The notes below the pieces were generated by a model. The model did no database searches and was not told the DNA's origin. It was given only the letters and a program-made list of their open reading frames with translations. 64,000 nucleotides of DNA, taken from Escherichia phage pEC-M719-6WT.2. The translations under genes were made by a program, and so were the position numbers. Below are positions 4,437-64,000 of this stretch, in pieces. The stretch lies in the sequence record OQ845958.1; one strand, written 5' to 3'. Position 1 is the stretch's first letter; each line of letters opens with the position of its first letter.

Positions 4437-4647
4437 TGAAAACTGCATTAGTCTATACCGAAAAGTTAAACGGTGACAAGGTCTGGAAACTTCTTATCAA
4501 AGGAAGCCCTACTGACCAGTTTATGGCCACCTGTGTGGGATTGTATACTCGTCCTACTAAAAAGATGATTCGTCAATTTAAACGGTTACACCGCGCGTTT
4601 TATAAGATTTAATAAATACCCTTATCTAATAATGGTAAGGGTTTATT

Positions 4648-11775: not shown

Positions 11776-12278
11776 ACCTTTTAAACGGCTTCTTGTTGGA
11801 GCCGCTTTCAGACTTCGCTCATATGGTAATATCTGTATCAAGCAGACTGAAACCGAATATAAAATGGTTGGGCAGTATTCCGATGAAATTTTTCGGATTG
11901 AGCCTGTAGCCAAGGTTTGGGTGGATTCACATCAACTTAAGAAGTGGTGGCAACGATGATAACATGGACTGCTGGTTAATGAATGACGAATACGAAAAAG
12001 TTTAAGAGGTGTATTATGACTATTGATGATGTAGATATTCTTACTTCCGACGAATTAAAACGATTGGGTAATATATTTCAAGACGAACATCCTGATTTTT
12101 AAGAGGTCATATGAATGACGAATTCGACGGATTTTGATAAGATTAAATCTGATAAAAATGAGATGATACTTCAATTTGAAGCCGCTCGTATTAAAGCAGA
12201 AAATGAAGGTACTATTAAATATAAGCCTATCAAGTTCAGGTCTTCTCATGAACCTCTGTATGGTGTATTAATTGGAAA

Positions 12279-12302
12279 GGAAGCCTAGTGCTTCCTTTTT
12301 TG
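12279..12302 (+). terminator. intrinsic terminator hairpin GGAAGC-ctagt-GCTTCC + T-run
   Basis: Perfect 6-bp stem followed by TTTTTTT. Confidence 0.55.
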
Positions 12303-12325
12303 CTTTATATTCGGGATGATAAAAT
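12301..12325 (+). promoter_or_regulatory. MotA-dependent middle promoter (TGCTTTA box, 12 nt, TAAAAT)
   Basis: Canonical MotA box at about -30 with TAAAAT -10, directly after terminator and upstream of gp47. Confidence 0.5.
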
Positions 12326-12345
12326 GAACCAACTGAGGAGAGTAT

Positions 12346-12489
12346 ATGGTATTATTTTTAGGATATGTCGTGTTATTCATGGCATTCTACACATTCACAC
12401 GAGCTTGTTGGATAGGATTCTTTTCTACTCCCGACGGGTTCATTTCAATAATTTTATTTTGCACTGCGATAACGGCGCTTGGCTTATGA
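12346..12489 (+). CDS. small membrane protein overlapping gp47 start
   Basis: 47-aa hydrophobic ORF with SD GAGGAG, ATGA overlap with gp47 start. Confidence 0.3.
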   Translation: MVLFLGYVVLFMAFYTFTRACWIGFFSTPDGFISIILFCTAITALGL

Positions 12490-13505
12490 AAATTTTAAAT
12501 TTAGGCGATTGGCACTTGGGTGTCAAAGCTGACGACCCATGGGCTCAAAACATTCAACGTGATGGTATTTTACAGGCGATTGCATATTCCAAAGCGAATG
12601 GAATTAAAGTCTGGATTCAATATGGTGATATTTTTGACGTCCGTAAGGCCGTAACGCATAAGACAATGGAATTCAGCCGCGAGATTATGGAACTCCTTCG
12701 TGAAGCAGGAATTACTATGCACACGATAGTCGGGAACCATGACATGAATCTGAAGAATAAGATTCATCCTAATGCTATCACTGAACTCCTGAATAAGTAT
12801 GACCATGTTAAAATCTACGACAAGCCAACGACTGTTGATTTTGACGGTTGTCAGATTGATATGATTCCATGGATGTGTGACGAGAACGCGACTGACATTC
12901 ATCAACACATCAAAACTTCTGGTGCCGAATATTGCATCGGTCACTGGGAATTAACCGGGTTTTATTTCTATAAAGGATTGAAATCCCATGGGCTTGAGCC
13001 CGATTTCCTTAAGAAGTACAAGCAAGTTTGGTCTGGGCACTTCCATACCATTTCGGAAGCTGCGAACGTTAAGTACATAGGGACACCATGGACATTAACA
13101 GCAGGTGATGAGAATGACCCGCGCGGATTCTGGGAATTTGATACAGAAACCGAAGAGATGAAATTTATTCCGAATGAAACCACCTGGCATCGGAAGATTT
13201 TTTATCCAAACGAAACTATTAACTACGACGACTTCAAAGACTTATCAGTCCGTGTTATTGTAGAAAAAGTCGATAAAGACCTGACCAAGTTCGAATCTGA
13301 ATTAGAAAAGCGTGTACATGAATTGCGTGTTGTCAATAAGGTTGATAACAGTGTTGATACGACTGACTCCGAAGAAGAGTTAGACATAAAACGCTTAACT
13401 GATATGATGGCAGAATATATTGATGCATTACCTGACACCAATGAGAAAGAATCAAAAGCTCTTAAAGCATTGGCCAACAAATTATATCTTGAGGTGCAAC
13501 CGTGA
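12486..13505 (+). CDS. 47: recombination nuclease subunit gp47 (Mre11-like)
   Basis: 339 aa from MKILNLGDWHLG..., phosphoesterase motifs GDIFD, GNHD; matches remembered T4 gp47 length and N-terminus. Confidence 0.9.
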   Translation: MKILNLGDWHLGVKADDPWAQNIQRDGILQAIAYSKANGIKVWIQYGDIFDVRKAVTHKTMEFSREIMELLREAGITMHTIVGNHDMNLKNKIHPNAITELLNKYDHVKIYDKPTTVDFDGCQIDMIPWMCDENATDIHQHIKTSGAEYCIGHWELTGFYFYKGLKSHGLEPDFLKKYKQVWSGHFHTISEAANVKYIGTPWTLTAGDENDPRGFWEFDTETEEMKFIPNETTWHRKIFYPNETINYDDFKDLSVRVIVEKVDKDLTKFESELEKRVHELRVVNKVDNSVDTTDSEEELDIKRLTDMMAEYIDALPDTNEKESKALKALANKLYLEVQP

Positions 13506-18980: not shown

Positions 18981-18990
18981 TTTAAAGCAA

Positions 18991-19009
18991 AGGGACTTCG
19001 GTCCCTTTT
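18991..19009 (+). terminator. hairpin AGGGAC-ttcg-GTCCCT with short T-run
   Basis: UUCG tetraloop hairpin after regA; only 4 T. Confidence 0.4.
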
Positions 19010-19040
19010 GTAGTATAATAGCGTCAAGTCATAAAACAAA

Positions 19041-29869: not shown

Positions 29870-30388
29870 ATGGCTCATTTTAATGAATGTTCACAACTGA
29901 TTGCCGGTGTTGATAAAGCTGCTCTGGCTTATGACAATGCAATTACAAAAGGTACTGACCCGCTGCAGATTATGCTTGATATGCAGAAATCATTGCAAGT
30001 TCGTCTGGCTACTGAAAAACCAGAATATAACTCACATCCAGATGAATTGGCTACTGCAGGTGATGTTGTTGCATGGCTTCGTAACCAGAAAGATTATATC
30101 GACGACGAATTCCGTGAACTTCTGACTTCTCTCGGTGGTATGTCTAATGGCGAGAAAGCTGCATCTAGTGTATGGAAACCATGGAAAGTCCAACATGCTG
30201 AATTCCGTAATCGTCGTATTGATGAGTTGTCTCCCGAAGACCAGCTCGAAATTAAATTTGAGATGATTGATATCCTGCACTTTGTTCTGAACATGTTCCA
30301 TGGCCTTGGACTGACTGCAGAAGAAATCTTTAAATTGTATTACCTGAAAAACGCTGAGAACTTTGCTCGTCAGGACCGGGGTTATTAA
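29870..30388 (+). CDS. 56: dCTP pyrophosphatase gp56 (MazG-like dCTPase/dUTPase)
   Basis: 172 aa, MAHFNECSQLIAGVDKA...IDDEFRELLTSLG...FARQDRGY; strong match to remembered T4 gp56. Confidence 0.88.
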   Translation: MAHFNECSQLIAGVDKAALAYDNAITKGTDPLQIMLDMQKSLQVRLATEKPEYNSHPDELATAGDVVAWLRNQKDYIDDEFRELLTSLGGMSNGEKAASSVWKPWKVQHAEFRNRRIDELSPEDQLEIKFEMIDILHFVLNMFHGLGLTAEEIFKLYYLKNAENFARQDRGY

Positions 30389-30429: not shown

Positions 30430-30663
30430 ATGGGTGGTTTCGTTAATATCAAAACCTTTACGCATCCAGCTGGTGAAGGTAAAGAAGTTAAAGGTGTTGA
30501 AGTATCTGTTCCGTTTGAAATCTATTCAAATGAGCATCGTATTGCGAATGCACACTATCAGACTTTTCCTTCCGAAAAGGCCGCTTATGTCACCGTAGCG
30601 TCTAGTGCAGCTGATTGGCGAACTAAGAACGCGGCGATGTTTACGCCTACCCCAGTAGTTTAA
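30430..30663 (+). CDS. soc: small outer capsid protein Soc
   Basis: 77 aa, FVNIKTF...AHYQTFPSEKAAY matches remembered T4 Soc; late promoter upstream, terminator downstream. Confidence 0.85.
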   Translation: MGGFVNIKTFTHPAGEGKEVKGVEVSVPFEIYSNEHRIANAHYQTFPSEKAAYVTVASSAADWRTKNAAMFTPTPVV

Positions 30664-30668
30664 TTATA

Positions 30669-30691
30669 GGGAACCTTCGGGTTCCCTTTTT
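30669..30691 (+). terminator. intrinsic terminator GGGAACC-ttcg-GGTTCCC + TTTTT
   Basis: 7-bp GC-rich stem, UUCG loop, T-run. Confidence 0.65.
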
Positions 30692-30714
30692 GCTTTTAAT
30701 AGAAGCGGTATAAT
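30691..30714 (+). promoter_or_regulatory. putative middle promoter (TGCTTTT box, TATAAT)
   Basis: MotA-box-like motif 11 nt upstream of TATAAT after soc terminator. Confidence 0.35.
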
Positions 30715-30739: not shown

Positions 30740-30937
30740 ATGTTAAACCGTTGGATTAAACCAAACAAAGCTTTAGATGAAATTATTGCTCATGATGTCC
30801 ATTTTAAGTATGGCCTGGGTGTGTTTGATGAAGTCATCGTACATTCATTCATGATGCATGACGATGACTCTTTAGAATTCAATATTGAAATCCGTTATGA
30901 TGATGGTCAAGTTGAATTTAAACGAGGTTTCCTATGA
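30740..30937 (+). CDS. hypothetical protein
   Basis: 65-aa ORF with SD GAGGAG. Confidence 0.4.
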   Translation: MLNRWIKPNKALDEIIAHDVHFKYGLGVFDEVIVHSFMMHDDDSLEFNIEIRYDDGQVEFKRGFL

Positions 30938-36542: not shown

Positions 36543-37218
36543 TGCTATTATTGACTTTGAAACTCTGGGAAACGGCTCGAAGGGAGCCGTTATTGACCTG
36601 GCTCTGATTACATTCGAATCTGACCCTGCTATTGTGGAATCATTCGAAACCCTGGTTAATCGCGGCAAACGTATCAAGTTTAGCCTTGAATACCAAAAAG
36701 GTAAGCGTCTGTTCGATACAACAACCATGGGTTGGTGGAAAAAGCAATCAGCAGAAGCCCGTGTTAACTTGGCTCCTTCTGCGCAAGATGTTGATACTCT
36801 GACCGGTATCCAACAGGCAATTGATTATCTGAATGGTAATGGAATTAACAAATACGAAAGCCTTATGTGGTGTCGTGGAATGTCTTTTGACTTCCCGTTG
36901 TTTGTTGACCTTATCCGTGACCTACAGCGCAATGAGGGTATTCCCGAGCGTGAATTGAATACCTATGGCCTGGAGCCAGTTGTATTCTGGAACCAGCGAG
37001 ATATCAGGACAGCAATCGAAGCCCTATCACTCGTCCGTAAGATGTGTGAAACTCCATTACCAAAGGGGACTTTAGATGGATTTGTGGCGCATGATTCGGT
37101 GCATGACTGCGCGAAAGATATTTTGATGCTTAAGTATGCCCAGCGCTATGCTCTTGGTTTGGATGAAGTTCCTTCCGAAGAAGATGCAGACCCGTTATCT
37201 TTACCGAAAAAACGATAA
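36535..37218 (+). CDS. dexA: exonuclease A (DnaQ-like 3'-5' exonuclease)
   Basis: 227 aa, N-terminal DFET exonuclease motif, same length as T4 DexA. Confidence 0.8.
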   Translation: MIDAIIDFETLGNGSKGAVIDLALITFESDPAIVESFETLVNRGKRIKFSLEYQKGKRLFDTTTMGWWKKQSAEARVNLAPSAQDVDTLTGIQQAIDYLNGNGINKYESLMWCRGMSFDFPLFVDLIRDLQRNEGIPERELNTYGLEPVVFWNQRDIRTAIEALSLVRKMCETPLPKGTLDGFVAHDSVHDCAKDILMLKYAQRYALGLDEVPSEEDADPLSLPKKR

Positions 37219-37225
37219 AAAGTAG

Positions 37226-37254
37226 TGTACAAGGCCAATGGAAAGAGACATAAT
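37226..37254 (+). promoter_or_regulatory. early promoter (-35 TGTACA, -10 CATAAT)
   Basis: AAAAGTAGTGTACA, 17-nt spacer, CATAAT, then SD-hairpin motif. Confidence 0.45.
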
Positions 37255-37285
37255 CATCTCATCAACTACTGATGAGGATAACAAA

Positions 37286-37543
37286 ATGATTACTTCTTTT
37301 GAAATTGGCCAACAATATGAAATGTCTGCTCTTCAAGCTGCTGAAGCAGGTCTGACTGAAGCGTTTGAATGTGCATTTACAAATATTCGTGGTAAAATCT
37401 TTACTGTCAATAAAATTGCGGTATATGATAAAGAAACAGACATGAACAAAGGCATCTACTTGAACGTGTCAAACGCAAAAGGCCGTCGTGAAATTATGGT
37501 TGTACAACCTAACCAACTGGCGATGTTCAATAAGGTTACATAA
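37286..37543 (+). CDS. hypothetical protein
   Basis: 85-aa ORF from ATG after SD GAGGA. Confidence 0.45.
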   Translation: MITSFEIGQQYEMSALQAAEAGLTEAFECAFTNIRGKIFTVNKIAVYDKETDMNKGIYLNVSNAKGRREIMVVQPNQLAMFNKVT

Positions 37544-38295
37544 TGAAACCAGAATTTATTGACTTTGATGTTGTAAGCATGTATGTTCGCCCAATTAAAC
37601 CATTAAAACTTGAGAAACAAAATATGACTATTGAAATTAACAAAACTTATCAACTGATTGAACCTATTATTCAAAACGCAGCTATGGTTTCTGGGTATAA
37701 TACTCTGACTGATGCTTTAGGCGAAGGTGAATTTATTGTTGAAACTTTTGTAAAAAGTAACTGGTTTGATAAAGCATATATTTTGCATGCACGTCGCCTT
37801 GATACAAATGAAGTAGAAAAAATTATGGTTTATGAAGCTGAGATTGAACTCTTCAAAGAAGTTGAAGAAACTCCTATCAAAGTTGACAAAACCTATCAAC
37901 TTGTTGGATATGGTGATTTTGATAATACTAATGCATTGAATGCCGGTTGGCGCGTACTGAAAGGTATTTTTGGATTTGCTCCATTTACCGTTAAAACAGT
38001 TAAGTACCACAATCACCAAAGCATCTTTGAATTTACTGCGGTCAATGAATCAGGTGACAATCTTGAAGCCATCCTTTATCCGCGTGAATCTGTACTGCTG
38101 GAAGAAGTTAGCGAACTGGGTGACCCTATTGACTTGTTATGCAAACCAGTTCAAATCAAACGCCCATTTAACAGTTCCATTTGTGGTTGGGTAACAGACC
38201 AGTGGATTGAAGATGGTGTTGAACTCCTGAACGTTGTCCATGCTGGTGAATTTACTGTTGTACCACGTTCTATGGTTGTTGAAATTTTTAATTAA
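37543..38295 (+). CDS. hypothetical protein with internal repeat; C-terminal domain shared with next ORF
   Basis: 250 aa; (N/D)KTYQL repeated twice; C-terminus GWVTDQWIEDGVELLNVVHAGEFTVVP. Confidence 0.5.
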   Translation: MKPEFIDFDVVSMYVRPIKPLKLEKQNMTIEINKTYQLIEPIIQNAAMVSGYNTLTDALGEGEFIVETFVKSNWFDKAYILHARRLDTNEVEKIMVYEAEIELFKEVEETPIKVDKTYQLVGYGDFDNTNALNAGWRVLKGIFGFAPFTVKTVKYHNHQSIFEFTAVNESGDNLEAILYPRESVLLEEVSELGDPIDLLCKPVQIKRPFNSSICGWVTDQWIEDGVELLNVVHAGEFTVVPRSMVVEIFN

Positions 38296-38300
38296 ATTTA

Positions 38301-38345
38301 AAGTGTACAAACTCTTGGGGTCAGAGTATAATGACCCCACTGGAG
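38301..38345 (+). repeat. promoter/stem-loop cassette copy A
   Basis: AGTGTACAAACTCTTGGGGTCAGAGTATAATGACCCCACTGGAG; 44/45 identical to copy at 49511. Confidence 0.7.
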
Positions 38346-38374
38346 AATAAACTTATTAACCAAGAGAGAAAATT

Positions 38375-38929
38375 ATGAAAGTTGAAGCTGGTGATATTGT
38401 ACGTGTTTCTAAAGAATCTCGTTCTAAAGCTGCTGGTCGTTTTGTTGAGGTTGCGGGTCTTCGCACTAATTTAGTAGGTGGAATTAAAGAAGTTAAAGTG
38501 CGTATCATTCCTAAAAATGGTCAGACTGAAACTCAATTGGCTTATGTGCATCCTAAATTCCTGGAATCAACCGAATTTACTGGATATATCGCTCCTGTGT
38601 CTGAGGAAGTTGAATCCCATGATGGATATGTGTGCGAAAGCAATGATATCCGTGGTGTAATTGCTCAAGACGTTGAAACCATTGACCAGTCTCATGTTGG
38701 GGTTGATTTTAAATGGAAATTGGGCAAAGGTGTCTTTTTTGTTTCACCTAAACCGTTTGAATACAATTGCATGTACGGTCCGACTTATGAAACCACTAGC
38801 ATGTCTGGTTACATCACAGACCAGTGGGTTGAAGAAGGTGTCAAACTGTATAATATCGTATTCCTTGGAACCTTTAAGGTTGTTCCTGAGAGCTTTATCG
38901 TTGAGTATGCCGATATTCATTTTGCCTAA
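38375..38929 (+). CDS. hypothetical protein; C-terminal domain paralogous to 37543 ORF
   Basis: 184 aa; C-terminus GYITDQWVEEGVKLYNIVFLGTFKVVP. Confidence 0.5.
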   Translation: MKVEAGDIVRVSKESRSKAAGRFVEVAGLRTNLVGGIKEVKVRIIPKNGQTETQLAYVHPKFLESTEFTGYIAPVSEEVESHDGYVCESNDIRGVIAQDVETIDQSHVGVDFKWKLGKGVFFVSPKPFEYNCMYGPTYETTSMSGYITDQWVEEGVKLYNIVFLGTFKVVPESFIVEYADIHFA

Positions 38930-40018: not shown

Positions 40019-40420
40019 ATGTTTAAAATTGGAAAGAGTTATTGCATTAAAGATTTAGATGGCTTCCTTAAACATGTCGGTATGCCCGGTTGCATTTTGA
40101 ACCAGCAAGGAACCTCTATCATTGATTTGATTACTACCAAAGAGTTTTCAGTCACCAAGATGGAAGCAAATGTTGTGACGGAATTTAGTACTATCGATGG
40201 AACTGGATTTTCTTTCCATAGTCGTAATGGAACCGGTCTTATTTTTGGTGATGAATTTAAATATTTTGAAGAAACCCCAAAGGAATGTGATTCTGAAATA
40301 ACCGAACAGGAATCAAAAGAGGATATTGTTGTTACCGGTGGCGATGTTATTATTACGGTTAAAACTGAAGCCGGGCGCCTACAAGCTATTAAAATGTTAG
40401 AGCAGCTTCGATTCAAATAA
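40019..40420 (+). CDS. hypothetical protein
   Basis: 133-aa ORF with SD GAGGA. Confidence 0.45.
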   Translation: MFKIGKSYCIKDLDGFLKHVGMPGCILNQQGTSIIDLITTKEFSVTKMEANVVTEFSTIDGTGFSFHSRNGTGLIFGDEFKYFEETPKECDSEITEQESKEDIVVTGGDVIITVKTEAGRLQAIKMLEQLRFK

Positions 40421-40439
40421 AAGGCCTTCGGGCCTTTTT
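40421..40439 (+). terminator. intrinsic terminator AAGGCC-ttcg-GGCCTT + TTTTT
   Basis: UUCG hairpin plus T-run. Confidence 0.6.
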
Positions 40440-40463
40440 GCTTTAAAATATGTGACTTATAAT
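40439..40463 (+). promoter_or_regulatory. MotA-dependent middle promoter (TGCTTTA box, 12 nt, TATAAT)
   Basis: Canonical MotA box upstream of gp39. Confidence 0.5.
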
Positions 40464-40485: not shown

Positions 40486-42318
40486 ATGATGATTAATAAT
40501 GAAATTAAAGTACTCTCGGACGTCGAGCATATCAAAAAACGTTCCGGGATGTATATTGGTTCCAGTTCAAATGAAGCGCATGAGCGATTCTTGTTTGGTG
40601 AATATAAGTCCGTAAGCTATGTTCCTGGTATTGTAAAACTGATTGATGAAATTATCGATAACTCTGTTGATGAAGCAATTCGCACCAGTTTTAAATTTGC
40701 CAATAAAATTGATGTCCAAATTAAAGATAATCAGATTTCGGTTTCCGATAATGGCCGTGGTATTCCACAAGCAATGGTTACAGACCAAAACGGTGAACAA
40801 ATCCCTGGCCCGGTTGCAGCATGGACTATTCCAAAAGCAGGTGGTAACTTCGGTGATGATGCTGAACGTAAAACTGGTGGGATGAATGGCGTCGGGTCTT
40901 CTCTGACCAATATTTTCTCTGTATTGTTCACCGGGATTACTGCCGACGGCACAAATGAAATCACCGTTAACTGCTCCAATGGTATGGAAAACAAAGGTTG
41001 GTCTACCAAGAAATCTAAGGGTAAAGGTACAACTGTTATTTTTGTTCCGGACTTCAGTCACTTTGAAGAAAATAGCCTGTCCCAGATTTATCTGGATATT
41101 ACATTGGACCGTCTGCAGACTCTTGCGGTTGTTTATCCGGATATTCAGTTTACCTTTAATGGTAAAAAGGTTGATGGCAATTTCAAGAAGTTCGCCAAGC
41201 AATTCGGAACCGAAGTTGTTATCCAGGAAACTGATACAGTATCGATGGCCTTTACGACTAGCCCGGATGGTTTCCGCCAGTTGACTTATGTCAACAACAT
41301 TCATACAAAGAATGGTGGGCACCACGTTGAATGTGTTATGGATGATATCTGTGAACATCTTCAGCCAGCCATTAAACGCAAATATAAAGGCATTGAGGTG
41401 ACAAAGGCACGAGTTAAAGAATGCCTCACCATGCTTATGTTCATTCGCGATATGAGCAACATGCGATTTGATTCCCAGACTAAGGAGCGATTGACTTCTC
41501 CGGCTGGTGAAATTCGAAATCACATTAAGATTGATGCCAAGAAAATCGCACAAGCTATTCTGAAAAATGAACCACTGATTATGCCGATTGTTGAAGCTGC
41601 ATTAGCCCGTAAATTGGCTGCAGAGAAAGCAGCAGAGACCAAGGCGAATAAGAAAGCTTCAAAGGCCAAGGTGCAAAAGCATATCAAGGCCAACGAATGG
41701 GGCAATGATAAGCTGGAAACGACTCTATTCCTGACCGAAGGTGATTCTGCAACCGGTCCATTTATCAAGGTCCGCGACCGTGAATTACAAGGTGCTTATC
41801 CGTTACGTGGTAAGTTCAAAAACACATGGGGTCTGAAAGCTGTTGACGTTATGAAGAACGCCGAAGCCTTTGATGTGTGTGCGATTACTGGTTTAACGAT
41901 TGGACAACCGGCCGAGAATATGAATTACCGAAACATTGCTATCATGACAGATGCGGATGTGGATGGTGTCGGTAGTATCTATCCATCGTTATTGGCGTTT
42001 TTCAGTAACTGGCCAGAGCTGTTCCATGAAGGACGAATTCGCTTTGTGAAAACTCCTGTTATTATTGCGCAGCTCAAAGATAAACAAGAATGGTTCTATT
42101 CTCTTCCTGACTATGAAGAAGCTAAGGATAAACTTCCGAAGCACACCATCCGATATATCAAGGGGCTTGGTTCTCTGGAAGATGCCGAGTACAAACGCGT
42201 ATTGCTCGAACCAGTATTCGAAGTTGTTCAATTGCCCGACAACTGGAAAGAACTGTTCGAAATGCTCTTCGGTAAAGATTCCCAGCAGCGTAAAGATTGG
42301 ATGAATGCGACACTATAA
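40486..42318 (+). CDS. 39: DNA topoisomerase II large subunit gp39 (GyrB-like), fused 39+60 form
   Basis: 610 aa single ORF with GHKL ATPase and TOPRIM regions; no separate gene 60. Confidence 0.93.
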   Translation: MMINNEIKVLSDVEHIKKRSGMYIGSSSNEAHERFLFGEYKSVSYVPGIVKLIDEIIDNSVDEAIRTSFKFANKIDVQIKDNQISVSDNGRGIPQAMVTDQNGEQIPGPVAAWTIPKAGGNFGDDAERKTGGMNGVGSSLTNIFSVLFTGITADGTNEITVNCSNGMENKGWSTKKSKGKGTTVIFVPDFSHFEENSLSQIYLDITLDRLQTLAVVYPDIQFTFNGKKVDGNFKKFAKQFGTEVVIQETDTVSMAFTTSPDGFRQLTYVNNIHTKNGGHHVECVMDDICEHLQPAIKRKYKGIEVTKARVKECLTMLMFIRDMSNMRFDSQTKERLTSPAGEIRNHIKIDAKKIAQAILKNEPLIMPIVEAALARKLAAEKAAETKANKKASKAKVQKHIKANEWGNDKLETTLFLTEGDSATGPFIKVRDRELQGAYPLRGKFKNTWGLKAVDVMKNAEAFDVCAITGLTIGQPAENMNYRNIAIMTDADVDGVGSIYPSLLAFFSNWPELFHEGRIRFVKTPVIIAQLKDKQEWFYSLPDYEEAKDKLPKHTIRYIKGLGSLEDAEYKRVLLEPVFEVVQLPDNWKELFEMLFGKDSQQRKDWMNATL

Positions 42319-42513: not shown

Positions 42514-42516
42514 CCA

Positions 42517-42539
42517 AAAGGACCTTCGGGTCCTTTTTT
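42517..42539 (+). terminator. intrinsic terminator AAAGGACC-ttcg-GGTCCTTT + T-run
   Basis: 8-bp stem, UUCG loop, TTTTTT. Confidence 0.65.
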
Positions 42540-42589
42540 ATTATGTACAAGCCACAAAAATTGCGTTAAGATATCCTTGAGGTGAACAT

Positions 42590-51799: not shown

Positions 51800-51893
51800 G
51801 TTTTGGAGTTGAGTTTGCATTGCTTTGTATTTTCGCGGCAATCGCAGGTGTGATTGTTGGTATGTTTATTGGTAATAAGATAGATAAAGACTA

Positions 51894-51916
51894 GGACCCT
51901 TCGGGGTCCTTTTTTA
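51894..51916 (+). terminator. intrinsic terminator GGACCC-ttcg-GGGTCC + TTTTTTT
   Basis: UUCG hairpin plus 7 T after gp52 and a 32-aa overlapping membrane peptide ORF. Confidence 0.65.
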
Positions 51917-51932
51917 TTTTAAAATATTTTAA

Positions 51933-51986
51933 AAAAGTAGTGTACATGACCCTTGACCTGATGCATAATGATTCCATACTGAGTTA
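51933..51986 (+). promoter_or_regulatory. early promoter cassette (-35 TGTACA, -10 CATAAT, conserved GATTCCATACTGAGTTA)
   Basis: Third copy of the AAAAAGTAGTGTACA cassette; 17-nt spacer. Confidence 0.5.
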
Positions 51987-54715: not shown

Positions 54716-54991
54716 ATGACTAAATTTGAAATCGTTTCTGAAATTGTTACTATAACTTCAATTTTGATTAAAACCGACCGGGAAGATATTACGATGAAGC
54801 GCGATGTGTTTATCGCGTTTTTGAATGAGTTGGGATTGAGAAATGAGAATGGGAATGAGTTAAACAATGTATCGTTTAACAAATTGTTTAAAAGTTTATC
54901 TGAAGATGAAATTGAACAAATCATTGAACAATTTAACGAAGGATTCGAAGATATACACCGTTATCTTATGATGTATACCTCCGGATTCTAA
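54716..54991 (+). CDS. asiA: anti-sigma70 factor AsiA
   Basis: 91 aa; EIVTITSILIK...FIAFLNE...EQFNEGFE..HRYL.MYT matches remembered T4 AsiA. Confidence 0.85.
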   Translation: MTKFEIVSEIVTITSILIKTDREDITMKRDVFIAFLNELGLRNENGNELNNVSFNKLFKSLSEDEIEQIIEQFNEGFEDIHRYLMMYTSGF

Positions 54992-61633: not shown

Positions 61634-64000
61634 TTATTCAATCCATTCAAACTTAACGGATTTAGTGGTCGGGTCTGGGATGATACGTACGTTACCGATA
61701 CGTAACCAATCAAGAATGGTTAAGTTCCCCATCGTTGTGTTGTCAGCCGGTAATGCGCCAACATCCTCTGCAGACGGAGGGTTATCCGCGGTGTAAACCA
61801 TTGCGAAAGTCGTCCATGCAGATTTATTTTTCTGCCACGTACGAGTATAACGAATAGTACCACCGTTCAATCCAGTTGGATAGCAAACCCAATCTTGATA
61901 GCACGAATCCAGCGTATTACCAAACTGAGTCAATGTACCAGGATATTTAATTTGTTTATCACGAACTGAATAGTCAAACCAGGTTCCACGCAGTTTCTGC
62001 CCAGAGCTACCTAATACTTCATCACCAAGTGTACCATCATCATTACGATAACGAATAGCGGGCGAGGCAAAAGTTCCGTTTTCAGTTAACCAACCAGAAG
62101 CATTCCAAACTTCATCAGTTACACCAGCAGGTTTAGTTTGAACCGTATCAATGTTTACTTGACGTTTTAACTTCATTGTCCAATAACCAGGGAACTGGCT
62201 ATAAGTCGGTTCATCATTGATATCGACAGACCAGAAGCCAACAGTATCTGCAGTCGGAGCTTGCGCGATAAGACTTGGTTTCGTACCAAATACACGGACC
62301 GGAGCATTCACACGGAGCACACCAGACATTGTATCACCGGCTTGGTTAACAAAGTTTCTATCAACAATTTCTATTGCGTTTTTCTCGGTCAGAACTTTAA
62401 ATGCACCGCCACCATTTGCTATGATATTGCCAGCATCAAGAGTTTTGAGCACTAAATTCTGTGAGTTATCACCCAGAGACAAAGTTGCACCAGAAACTTC
62501 ACCCGTCGTGGTTGCGATAGTACGACCATTTAGAACATAATTATTTTTGGCTTGAACATCGTTTCCGGCGCTGAGGTTGTTCAATACAGCAGCATTACCC
62601 GAGGCGGTGTTTAATGTCAATACGTTAGTCGTATCACCAATAGTCATTGTCGTTCCGGTGGAAGGAGCAGTGATTTTCCACTTGTTAGTTCCGTTAACAA
62701 CATTCACAGTTCCGAACGTCGAAGTACCAGCCGTTACATCAGTAAACACCGCAGTGCTCGTCGATACAACCGGAGCAGAGATATTTGTCTGCTTAGTAAG
62801 GGATAATACACCTTCAACAGTCTGAGCAATATCACGACGAATAAACTGGGTCGAATCGAGGTTATCCAGTTTTTCAGCATTAACAGCCATCGCATTTATC
62901 GGTAAGAAGTTTTGCAATACGCGGTTTAATTCGTAAGGCGAAACTGCATATCCAGATTTCGCATAGCTAACCAGTTTACTTGGGTCCGGGGTATACACAC
63001 CATTTTCATATGTAAATCCCGCGCCCGTCGTTGTAGTTGCGGCCGAAGTAGCTGCACCGGAAGATAAACGAACAAATCCACGCAGTGTTTCAGATGCTTC
63101 CCAAGTTGTTTCCGTTTGGGCAATATATTTCAGCGCAGACGGACTAATGGCCAAGACTTTTGATGTGCCTGCTGTTGCTTCTGTGTTTGTCGCGATGCGA
63201 ACAATACCTTCGGCGTTTTCAGTGGCTTTTTTCGACATCAATTTAAGCGGGGTAACGATTGTTTTATCGTCAGTGCCGGTATTGACTTCACCCTGAGTCG
63301 CTAATCTTGCTGTACCACGTTGAGTCTCATTTGCTTCAAGAATATTCAGGCTATAATGGTCCCAGAGCGTCCCTGTTTCTACTAAACCACTTAATGCATT
63401 AACAGAAGTACGAGCAGTATTATTAAATCTATTTTTAATTTTTAATGGAGTTGAGATACGAGTATCATCAGTTCCAGTATCAAATTCTGATTGCGTAGCA
63501 ATCTCGGCTATGCCGGTCAACGTTTCTGATGCTTTACGGTCATTTAACGTTTTAGGAGTCACAGCTCTGGTATAATCGGTTCCTGCATCTGTTTCAACCT
63601 GAGTCGCAATCTCGATTAAACCGATACGAGAATCAAGAGCAGTTTTGCGATGCAACATTTCTGGGGTAACGACTGCGTTTGCCCAGCCAGATTGAGAAGT
63701 ACCAGCGATTACTTCACTTTCAACCGCAAGAATAACCGCGCCTTGCTGGGTGTAAGTAGCTTTGTACTGGTCAAGAGCTTTCGGAGAAACAACCAGATTA
63801 ACCGTATTTTTATTATAAACGTTTGTACCATTTAATTCACGCGAAGCAGCAGGAGTTGCACCAGTCGTTGAAACGTAAGTTACAATACCGGATAGCGATT
63901 CTGAGCCCTGGCGAGCTTGCAGTTTCTTTGGAGTTATAATTGTGGTATCATCTACACCCGCATTGGTTTCTTGCTGTGTGGCGAGTTCTGCGAGCCCACG
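61634..64000 (-). CDS. 34: long tail fibre proximal subunit gp34, C-terminal part (N-terminus beyond window)
   Basis: Frame hand-checked open from 61634 to the window edge; repeated ATQ/GTDD fibre motifs. Confidence 0.85.
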   Translation of the reverse strand, partial: RGLAELATQQETNAGVDDTTIITPKKLQARQGSESLSGIVTYVSTTGATPAASRELNGTNVYNKNTVNLVVSPKALDQYKATYTQQGAVILAVESEVIAGTSQSGWANAVVTPEMLHRKTALDSRIGLIEIATQVETDAGTDYTRAVTPKTLNDRKASETLTGIAEIATQSEFDTGTDDTRISTPLKIKNRFNNTARTSVNALSGLVETGTLWDHYSLNILEANETQRGTARLATQGEVNTGTDDKTIVTPLKLMSKKATENAEGIVRIATNTEATAGTSKVLAISPSALKYIAQTETTWEASETLRGFVRLSSGAATSAATTTTGAGFTYENGVYTPDPSKLVSYAKSGYAVSPYELNRVLQNFLPINAMAVNAEKLDNLDSTQFIRRDIAQTVEGVLSLTKQTNISAPVVSTSTAVFTDVTAGTSTFGTVNVVNGTNKWKITAPSTGTTMTIGDTTNVLTLNTASGNAAVLNNLSAGNDVQAKNNYVLNGRTIATTTGEVSGATLSLGDNSQNLVLKTLDAGNIIANGGGAFKVLTEKNAIEIVDRNFVNQAGDTMSGVLRVNAPVRVFGTKPSLIAQAPTADTVGFWSVDINDEPTYSQFPGYWTMKLKRQVNIDTVQTKPAGVTDEVWNASGWLTENGTFASPAIRYRNDDGTLGDEVLGSSGQKLRGTWFDYSVRDKQIKYPGTLTQFGNTLDSCYQDWVCYPTGLNGGTIRYTRTWQKNKSAWTTFAMVYTADNPPSAEDVGALPADNTTMGNLTILDWLRIGNVRIIPDPTTKSVKFEWIE

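Follow-up and report, generated by a model that had tools for sequence, protein, structure and literature searches.

The window analysed here is the whole 64,000-nt stretch of Escherichia phage pEC-M719-6WT.2 (OQ845958.1). At the junction between an a-gt.2-like gene and the genes 47.1 and 47, it carries a terminator-like hairpin whose T-run leads into a promoter-like element (site 1). Junctions of the same build lie upstream of gp39 (site 2) and between soc and mrh.2 (site 3). The features of the three sites and the two regulator genes of the window are the following.

12115-12288, + strand: a-gt.2-like ORF (DUF5486), whose final codons make up the 5' arm of the site 1 hairpin
12274-12301, + strand: site 1 terminator-like hairpin with a 6-T run (core 12279-12295, T-run 12296-12301)
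12298-12307, + strand: site 1 MotA box TTT-TGCTTTA (TGCTTTA at 12301-12307), its first bases being the end of the T-run
12317-12325, + strand: site 1 extended -10 element TGaTAAAAT (TG at 12317-12318)
12346-12489, + strand: 47.1-like small membrane ORF, first gene of the predicted middle transcript, with gp47 next (12486-13505)
30430-30663, + strand: soc, lying upstream and closed off by the site 3 hairpin
30668-30691, + strand: site 3 terminator-like hairpin GGGAACC-UUCG-GGUUCCC with a 5-T run (stem-loop 30669-30686, T-run 30687-30691)
30688-30714, + strand: site 3 Mot-type promoter TTT-TGCTTTT-N11-TATAAT (TGCTTTT at 30691-30697, -10 at 30709-30714)
40022-40420, + strand: ORF that the SP18 annotation gives as similar to RB69ORF005c, with the site 2 hairpin closing it
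40419-40439, + strand: site 2 terminator-like hairpin AAAAGGCC-UUCG-GGCCUUUU with a 5-T run (core 40423-40434)
40436-40463, + strand: site 2 Mot-type promoter TTT-TGCTTTA-N12-TATAAT (TGCTTTA at 40439-40445, -10 at 40458-40463), orthologue of T4 P39
52237-52845, + strand: motA (activator), Pfam MotA_activ and MotCF, 33% identity to T4 MotA
54716-54991, + strand: asiA (co-activator and anti-sigma factor), Pfam AsiA, 52% identity to T4 AsiA

Over 2 kb around site 1, the identity is 99% to Escherichia phage EAWsc9 and 95% to Shigella phage SP18. When the SP18 annotation was mapped on the window, the window proved to be the reverse complement of the early/middle arm. Its genes run in the order nrdC ... 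49, nrdD, 55, a-gt.2, 47, 46, 45, 44, 62, regA, 43, then uvsX, 41, 61, 56, soc, mrh, modA/B, dda, dexA, motB, and finally 39, rIIA, rIIB, 52, motA, asiA. These early and middle genes occupy the + strand to ~54990, beyond which the late genes t, 38, 37, 36, 35 and 34 follow on the - strand. The window thus corresponds to the early/middle arm of a T-even phage of the SP18 type (Gaprivervirus, Tevenvirinae). Rfam gave no match anywhere in the 64 kb.

In site 1, the stem GGAAGC/GCTTCC (12279-12284 and 12290-12295, + strand) encloses the loop CUAGU (12285-12289), in which the TAG stop of the a-gt.2-like ORF (12286-12288) sits. With A:U and G:U pairs the stem reaches from 12274 to 12300, and the fold has a free energy of -12.9 kcal/mol (z = -2.7 versus shuffles). 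A 12-nt spacer separates TGCTTTA from the -10 hexamer TAAAAT at 12320-12325. The 47.1-like ORF (47 residues) is clearly homologous to the predicted T4 membrane protein gp47.1, with the shared core TRACWIGFFSTPDGFISIILFC, and it is absent from the SP18 reference annotation. In site 2, the hairpin core GGCC-UUCG-GGCC is lengthened by AAAA/UUUU (-11.1 kcal/mol, z = -2.6), followed by the T-run at 40435-40439. The site 3 hairpin is the most stable of the three (-13.8 kcal/mol, z = -3.8 versus shuffles). Transcription starts were predicted by a rule taken from T4 P39, whose start (5349) lies exactly 7 nt past the last T of TATAAT. Counting +7 from the last T of each -10 places the starts at ~12332, ~30721 and ~40470, each an A, while mrh.2 begins at 30740 and gp39 at 40486.

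All three hairpins are on the coding strand, with a stop codon 0-5 nt upstream or, in site 1, in the loop. Their stems of -11.1 to -13.8 kcal/mol are followed directly by 5-6 U, the anatomy of an intrinsic terminator. We regard the hairpins as terminator-like and predict RNA 3' ends in the U-run. Reading the junctions directly bore out the first-pass annotation in its central claim, that a terminator hairpin with a T-run is closely followed by a TGCTT box and a -10 at all three. Several of its details need correction. It had called every hairpin UUCG-type, which is true of sites 2 and 3, but site 1 has the CUAGU loop with the upstream stop codon. The TGCTT(T/C)A box assigned to all sites is present at sites 1 and 2 as TGCTTTA, whereas site 3 reads TGCTTTT, with T as the last base. 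Site 1 had been placed before gp47; gp47 does lie downstream, but the small 47.1-like ORF intervenes.

A T4 middle promoter consists of a MotA box 12 ± 1 bp from a sigma70 -10 element, without a -35 element (Hinton 2010, PMC2988021). Sites 1 and 2 read TTTTGCTTTA, a perfect match to the MotA box (a/t)(a/t)(a/t)TGCTT(t/c)A centred near -30, and site 3 reads TTTTGCTTTT. The spacers of 12, 12 and 11 nt (sites 1, 2 and 3) fall within 12 ± 1 bp, and the -10 hexamers are TAAAAT, TATAAT and TATAAT. We searched for a sigma70 -35 element at 16-18 bp at the three sites and found none. The hexamers 17 bp upstream are TTTTTG at two sites and CTTTTT at one, each with at most 2 of 6 matches to TTGACA.

The pattern TGCTTNN-N11-13-TANNNT occurs 23 times in the window against 10.6 ± 3.3 in dinucleotide shuffles, none of which reached 23. 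Most occurrences (19 of 23) are on the + strand, home of the early and middle genes to ~54990. For three of the 17 + strand matches within positions 1-55000, the 28 nt just before the match fold at -9 kcal/mol or lower, compared with a background of 1.4% of positions (binomial P = 0.0015). A scan of both strands of the window for the full composite returned the three sites and two weak matches within ORFs, whose boxes are CGCTT/AGCTT and whose -10 hexamers are poor.

For comparison with T4, we took the whole T4 genome and inspected the upstream region of every middle promoter in Table 1 of a published compilation, which lists 58 with mapped starts, P39, P47 and PmobB among them (Hinton 2010, PMC2988021). 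These three were exactly the clean cases returned by a composite scan of the whole T4 genome, and every T4 composite is therefore a validated middle promoter. They read as follows.

T4 P39: AAAGGCC-TTCG-GGCCTTT-A-GCTTTA-N12-TATAAT
T4 P47: AAAGGGC-TTCG-GCCCTTT-A-GCTTTA-N12-TATAAT
T4 PmobB: ATAGGAGC-TTCG-GCTCCTAT-ATT-GCTTTA-N12-TAAAAT

Like sites 1 and 2, the T4 composites lie upstream of gene 39, downstream of a-gt.2 and upstream of 47.1-47. They show the same elements in the same order, namely a C(UUCG)G-type hairpin, a short T-run, GCTTTA, a 12-nt spacer and TATAAT or TAAAAT, and the T4 genome likewise has the activator genes motA and asiA. The left side of site 1 (the a-gt.2 3' end, hairpin, box and TAAAAT) is homologous to the T4 a-gt.2/PmobB junction, and its right side (47.1 and 47) to the T4 P47 junction. 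Sites 1 and 2 are positional orthologues of T4 PmobB/P47 and P39, respectively. Differences are also found. T4 P39 and P47 have an A in place of the T before GCTT and a shorter U-run, the site 1 loop is CUAGU and contains a stop codon, and site 3 has no T4 middle-promoter counterpart. In T4, a ~2-kb module of mobB and the alpha-glucosyltransferase gene (T4 genome, ~36600-38740) lies between the PmobB and P47 composites. In the window (12230-12400), by contrast, a single composite joins a-gt.2 directly to 47.1, and JS98-like phages likewise have one composite and no module.

At least nine further TGCTT matches in the window agree in position and sequence with mapped T4 middle promoters.

5030: T4 PnrdD
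7275: T4 P55.8(2), 25 of 25 bases identical
10640: T4 P55
13904: T4 P46
15111: T4 P46i(2)
28005: T4 P61
29807: T4 P56/69
50362: T4 P52
63332: T4 P34i

Because of these agreements, the Mot regulon appears to be conserved, although the window MotA is only 33% identical and AsiA 52% identical to the T4 proteins. The Pfam scores of the window MotA are modest. Given this MotA identity, the box specificity in the window phage is predicted from the conservation of the motif. The first-pass annotation had proposed a T4-like MotA/AsiA middle-promoter switch with both regulators encoded in the window. Both genes are indeed present by their Pfam matches, and the proposal gains support from the motif fit and the orthology of sites 1 and 2 to mapped T4 promoters; MotA dependence in the window phage would follow by analogy. 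The last of the matches listed (63332-63357, + strand) is antisense to gene 34 and is a strong match, TGCTTCAagaatattcaggcTATAAT, to T4 P34i. The T4 promoter drives one of two T4 replication origins that need MotA-dependent transcription (Hinton 2010, PMC2988021). Our literature search found no T4 Term-seq study and no usable start-site map.

We collected loci of relatives encoding gp39 and gp47 from IMG/VR and anchored the upstream regions on GCTT. A MAFFT alignment of the gp39 junctions put the stems out of register, and the hairpins were tallied in the GCTT-anchored sequences instead. The composite is present upstream of gp39 in loci whose gp39 identity ranges from 99% down to ~67%, and also upstream of gp47. 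The phages bearing it infect Escherichia, Enterobacter, Pectobacterium and Erwinia, and the loci include relatives of Enterobacter phage IME523, Pectobacterium phage PM2 and Erwinia phage Cronus. Seven variants occur at the gp39 junction: GGCC-TTCG-GGCC, GGGC-TTCG-GCCC, GGGC-TTAG-GCCC, GGAGC-CTAGT-GCTCC, GGAGCC-TACG-GGCTCC, GAGCC-TAAC-GGCTC and GGCC-GCAA-GGCC. The 47.1/gp47 junction has six stem/loop variants, with GGAAGC/GCTTCC and GGAGC/GCTCC among the relatives. Over the relatives, the stems are GGCC/GGCC, GGGC/GCCC, GGAGC/GCTCC, GGAGCC/GGCTCC, GAGCC/GGCTC, GGACC/GGTCC and GGAAGC/GCTTCC. All stem variants of both junctions are perfectly paired except for a single mismatch in one locus (L066), and the loops differ too. 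From the GC core to GCTT the distance is always 3-6 nt, nearly all T. Stems that vary and yet stay paired indicate selection on structure, which compensatory changes have preserved.

Different phages have different ORFs upstream of the gp39 composite. In three IME523-like loci (L012, L013 and L017), the hairpin upstream of gp39 is GGAGC-CTAGT-GCTCC, with TAG in the loop. The occurrence of the GGA(A)GC-CUAGU-GCU(U)CC type at both the gp47 junction of the window and the IME523-like gp39 junction suggests cassette exchange or convergence. The box is found without any hairpin in several lineages (L026-L029, L031-L033, L058 and L080). Loci like that of Enterobacter phage myPSH1140 have the box and the -10 but no hairpin, with TGCTTTA coming immediately after the stop codon. 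Another arrangement, a hairpin ~17 nt away from a box variant, is found in one locus. Since some lineages have the box without the hairpin, the hairpin is dispensable for the promoter and the composite consists of two separable signals. Their contact is explained by very short intergenic gaps and by a U-run that happens to suit the A/T-rich upstream part of the box.

Site 3, at the soc/mrh.2 junction, is confined to the lineage of this phage. A Mot-type promoter is found there in Gaprivervirus loci only, with the box and the -10 invariant and the spacer variable (L115-L117). T4 (L005) and the JS98-like loci (L118-L123) keep the terminator, which is followed by an early-type promoter, GTTTAC-17-TATAAT or TAAGAT. 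The junction appears to have changed promoter class between lineages. The Mot assignment of site 3 is drawn from the fit to the motif, with no T4 counterpart of the same promoter class, and the T-ending box variant of site 3 is common at the P39 junction of relatives. The soc/mrh.2 intergenic gap is ~20 bp shorter in the window phage, and JS98-like phages carry TGGTTTTAA at the place of TGCTTTTAA in the window.

Terminators next to promoters are found beyond the three sites. Most of the site 2 T-run pairs with the upstream A-run, and our terminator scan used stems trimmed to the GC core. All seven intergenic + strand terminators found between 12 and 52 kb have a promoter-like element within 50 nt downstream; three are the canonical Mot-type sites 1-3, two are early-type, and two have a GCTT- or ACTT-like motif in the hairpin loop and a -10 behind it. 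Sites 1-3 are the Mot-type subset of a general terminator-promoter punctuation. The other four junctions, and one further hairpin of the window, are these.

18989-19019, + strand: hairpin AAAGGGAC-UUCG-GUCCCUUU after regA (terminator 18992), with TATAAT 8 nt later, orthologue of T4 P43
26041-26078, + strand: terminator AAAAAGGGGCU-UAC-AGCCCCUUUUU after gp41 (terminator 26046), -15.2 kcal/mol
42516-42572, + strand: early-type junction with a UUCG terminator (42520) and TGTACA-17-TAAGAT
51893-51969, + strand: early-type junction with a UUCG terminator (51894), an AT-rich stretch and GTGTACA-17-CATAAT, upstream of the motA.1/motA unit
4619-4641, + strand: 23-nt hairpin CCCUUAUC...GGUAAGGG, -9.9 kcal/mol, ending 6 nt before the gp49 start codon (4648)

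At the 18992 junction, the sole Mot-like motif is GACTTCG in the hairpin loop, with a 13-nt spacer. The T4 P43 counterpart (NC_000866, ~29938-29975, - strand) has GGCTTCG in the loop and a 15-nt spacer. A C(UUCG)G loop with a preceding G automatically holds the box core GCTTC. The loop of the 26046 terminator contains CTTACA, which resembles a -35 and is separated by 17 bp from TATAAT. By its layout, this junction fits the PeSL class (described below) with the stem-loop overlapping the -35, and it can also be read as Mot-type (GGCTTAC, 13-nt spacer, TATGTT). With regard to the hairpin before gp49, a hairpin in T4 gene 49 masks the ribosome-binding site in long transcripts.

We consider it probable that each site holds two signals, an intrinsic terminator or attenuator and then a MotA/AsiA-dependent middle promoter. 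The GC-rich hairpin with its U-run would end or thin the transcripts from upstream promoters and so close the upstream units (a-gt.2, the RB69ORF005c-like ORF and soc). It probably also guards the 3' ends of the upstream messages and keeps read-through transcription away from the next promoter. The T-run would double as the A/T-rich beginning of a MotA box (TTT-TGCTTT-A/T) whose centre lies close to -30. Remodelling of the sigma70 holoenzyme by the early proteins AsiA and MotA would be followed by binding of MotA to the box. Sigma region 2 would bind the -10 located 11-12 bp downstream, and transcription would start ~7 nt later (12332, 30721 and 40470), ~35 nt past the hairpin. The expected outcome is middle-mode expression of 47.1-47-46, of mrh.2 and the following genes, and of the topoisomerase gene 39. 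We infer the termination efficiency and the exact start sites from these sequence patterns. T4 uses two routes to middle-gene expression, prolonged early transcripts and middle promoters (Hinton 2010, PMC2988021), and this duality agrees with a partial terminator immediately ahead of a middle promoter.

Two other roles for these elements were considered and rejected. The T-run as an UP element is at odds with the blocking of alpha-CTD contacts by ADP-ribosylation at middle promoters (Hinton 2010, PMC2988021). A hairpin acting as part of the middle mRNA, such as a translational operator, conflicts with a predicted start ~35 nt downstream of the hairpin.

The hairpins may instead be mainly RNA-stability or processing elements, or linkers for recombination at the DNA level, that most polymerases read through. 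They would then serve as 3'-end caps against exonucleases, or as short conserved repeats for module exchange. The T4 P39 and P47 hairpins have merely UUUA before GCUUUA and may be weak terminators with such short U-runs. T4 middle genes are also reached by extension of early transcripts, and read-through must therefore be substantial (Hinton 2010, PMC2988021). The mobB-a-gt module between two T4 composites, against the one composite of the window, is the pattern described for PeSL-mediated shuffling. Against this, the U-runs of the window are 5-6 long and continue into GCUUU, as is typical of efficient intrinsic terminators, and a reporter assay showed the stem-loop of a related PeSL cassette to equal rrnB T1 in termination (Arbiol 2010, PMC2839356). 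We consider a mainly non-terminating hairpin unlikely, and stability or linker roles are not mutually exclusive with termination. Tentatively, and as less likely than not, we also put forward that the composites are recombination linkers of the PmSL type, shifting modules and able to convert a junction from one promoter class to another. This proposal draws on the two T4 composites at mobB-a-gt against one here, the hairpin type shared between junctions and the class swap at soc/mrh.2. With the predicted RNA release point inside the MotA box, a polymerase that terminates might in addition pass straight to the neighbouring promoter.

The promoters themselves could be read otherwise. At least one of them, especially that of site 3, could be independent of MotA, driven by the -10 or of the early sigma70 type, with TGCTT as a by-product of the terminator tail. 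The orthologous soc/mrh.2 junction is early-type in T4 and JS98-like phages, the difference between TGGTTTTAA and TGCTTTTAA means that the site 3 box could be a one-base accident, and the extended -10 of site 1 can work without a -35. We nevertheless judge this improbable, since no -35-like hexamer lies at 16-18 bp at any of the three sites, the box spacing is 11-12 bp at all of them, the box and -10 of site 3 are invariant among Gaprivervirus relatives while the spacer changes, and sites 1 and 2 are orthologous to MotA-dependent T4 promoters. An adjacency of hairpin and box by mere chance in an AT-rich genome is most improbable of all. TTTTGCTTT alone is not significantly enriched (4 in the window versus 2.1 expected), but 3 of the 4 occurrences come directly after the three hairpins, and the hairpin-box association within the window is itself significant by the binomial test given above. 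Many diverged phages have the composite at these junctions, and their stems covary, which already refutes chance. A terminator followed by a MotA/AsiA-dependent promoter is the reading we retain.

Composites of this class are already known. In T4-type phages, composite terminator/promoter cassettes are called PeSL, and both the stem-loop and the promoter work in reporter assays; isolation of transcription units and recombinational shuffling of modules are the proposed roles (Arbiol 2010, PMC2839356). In Vibrio phage nt-1, cassettes that combine a stem-loop with TGCTT and a -10, the Mot-box version, received the name PmSL (Comeau 2014, PMC4122927). As in these cassettes, the window sites have a stem-loop fused to a promoter in the gap just before the ribosome-binding site and start codon, at all three sites. 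PeSL and PmSL cassettes flank insertions and deletions between related phages. Changes of this kind are seen here in the T4 mobB-a-gt module, the soc/mrh.2 promoter swap and the variable ORF upstream of the gp39 composite. PeSLs are mainly found in hyperplastic regions next to orphan ORFs, and PmSLs in Vibrio phage nt-1. In contrast, two of the three window sites precede core replication and recombination genes at a conserved position, and their stem-loop is always upstream of the box, with overlap only through the T-run. C(UUCG)G intrinsic terminators have, like sites 2 and 3, a C-G-closed GC stem around UUCG and then a U-run right after the stop codon, whereas site 1 has a pentaloop. Such tetraloop hairpins were reportedly first noticed as frequent in T4 intercistronic regions by Tuerk et al. 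in 1988.

The three composites are ordinary T4-type gene punctuation and leave the current understanding of T4-type transcription unchanged. Their value is in annotation, as three predicted middle promoters and three predicted terminators are placed in a Gaprivervirus genome whose public relatives are without regulatory annotation. They predict that the replication and recombination genes 47.1-47-46 and 39 would be MotA-dependent in this phage, with the MotA box retained even with a MotA merely 33% identical to the T4 protein. Finally, the single composite where T4 has two, together with the early-to-middle promoter swap, gives a clean example in favour of the published model of cassette shuffling.
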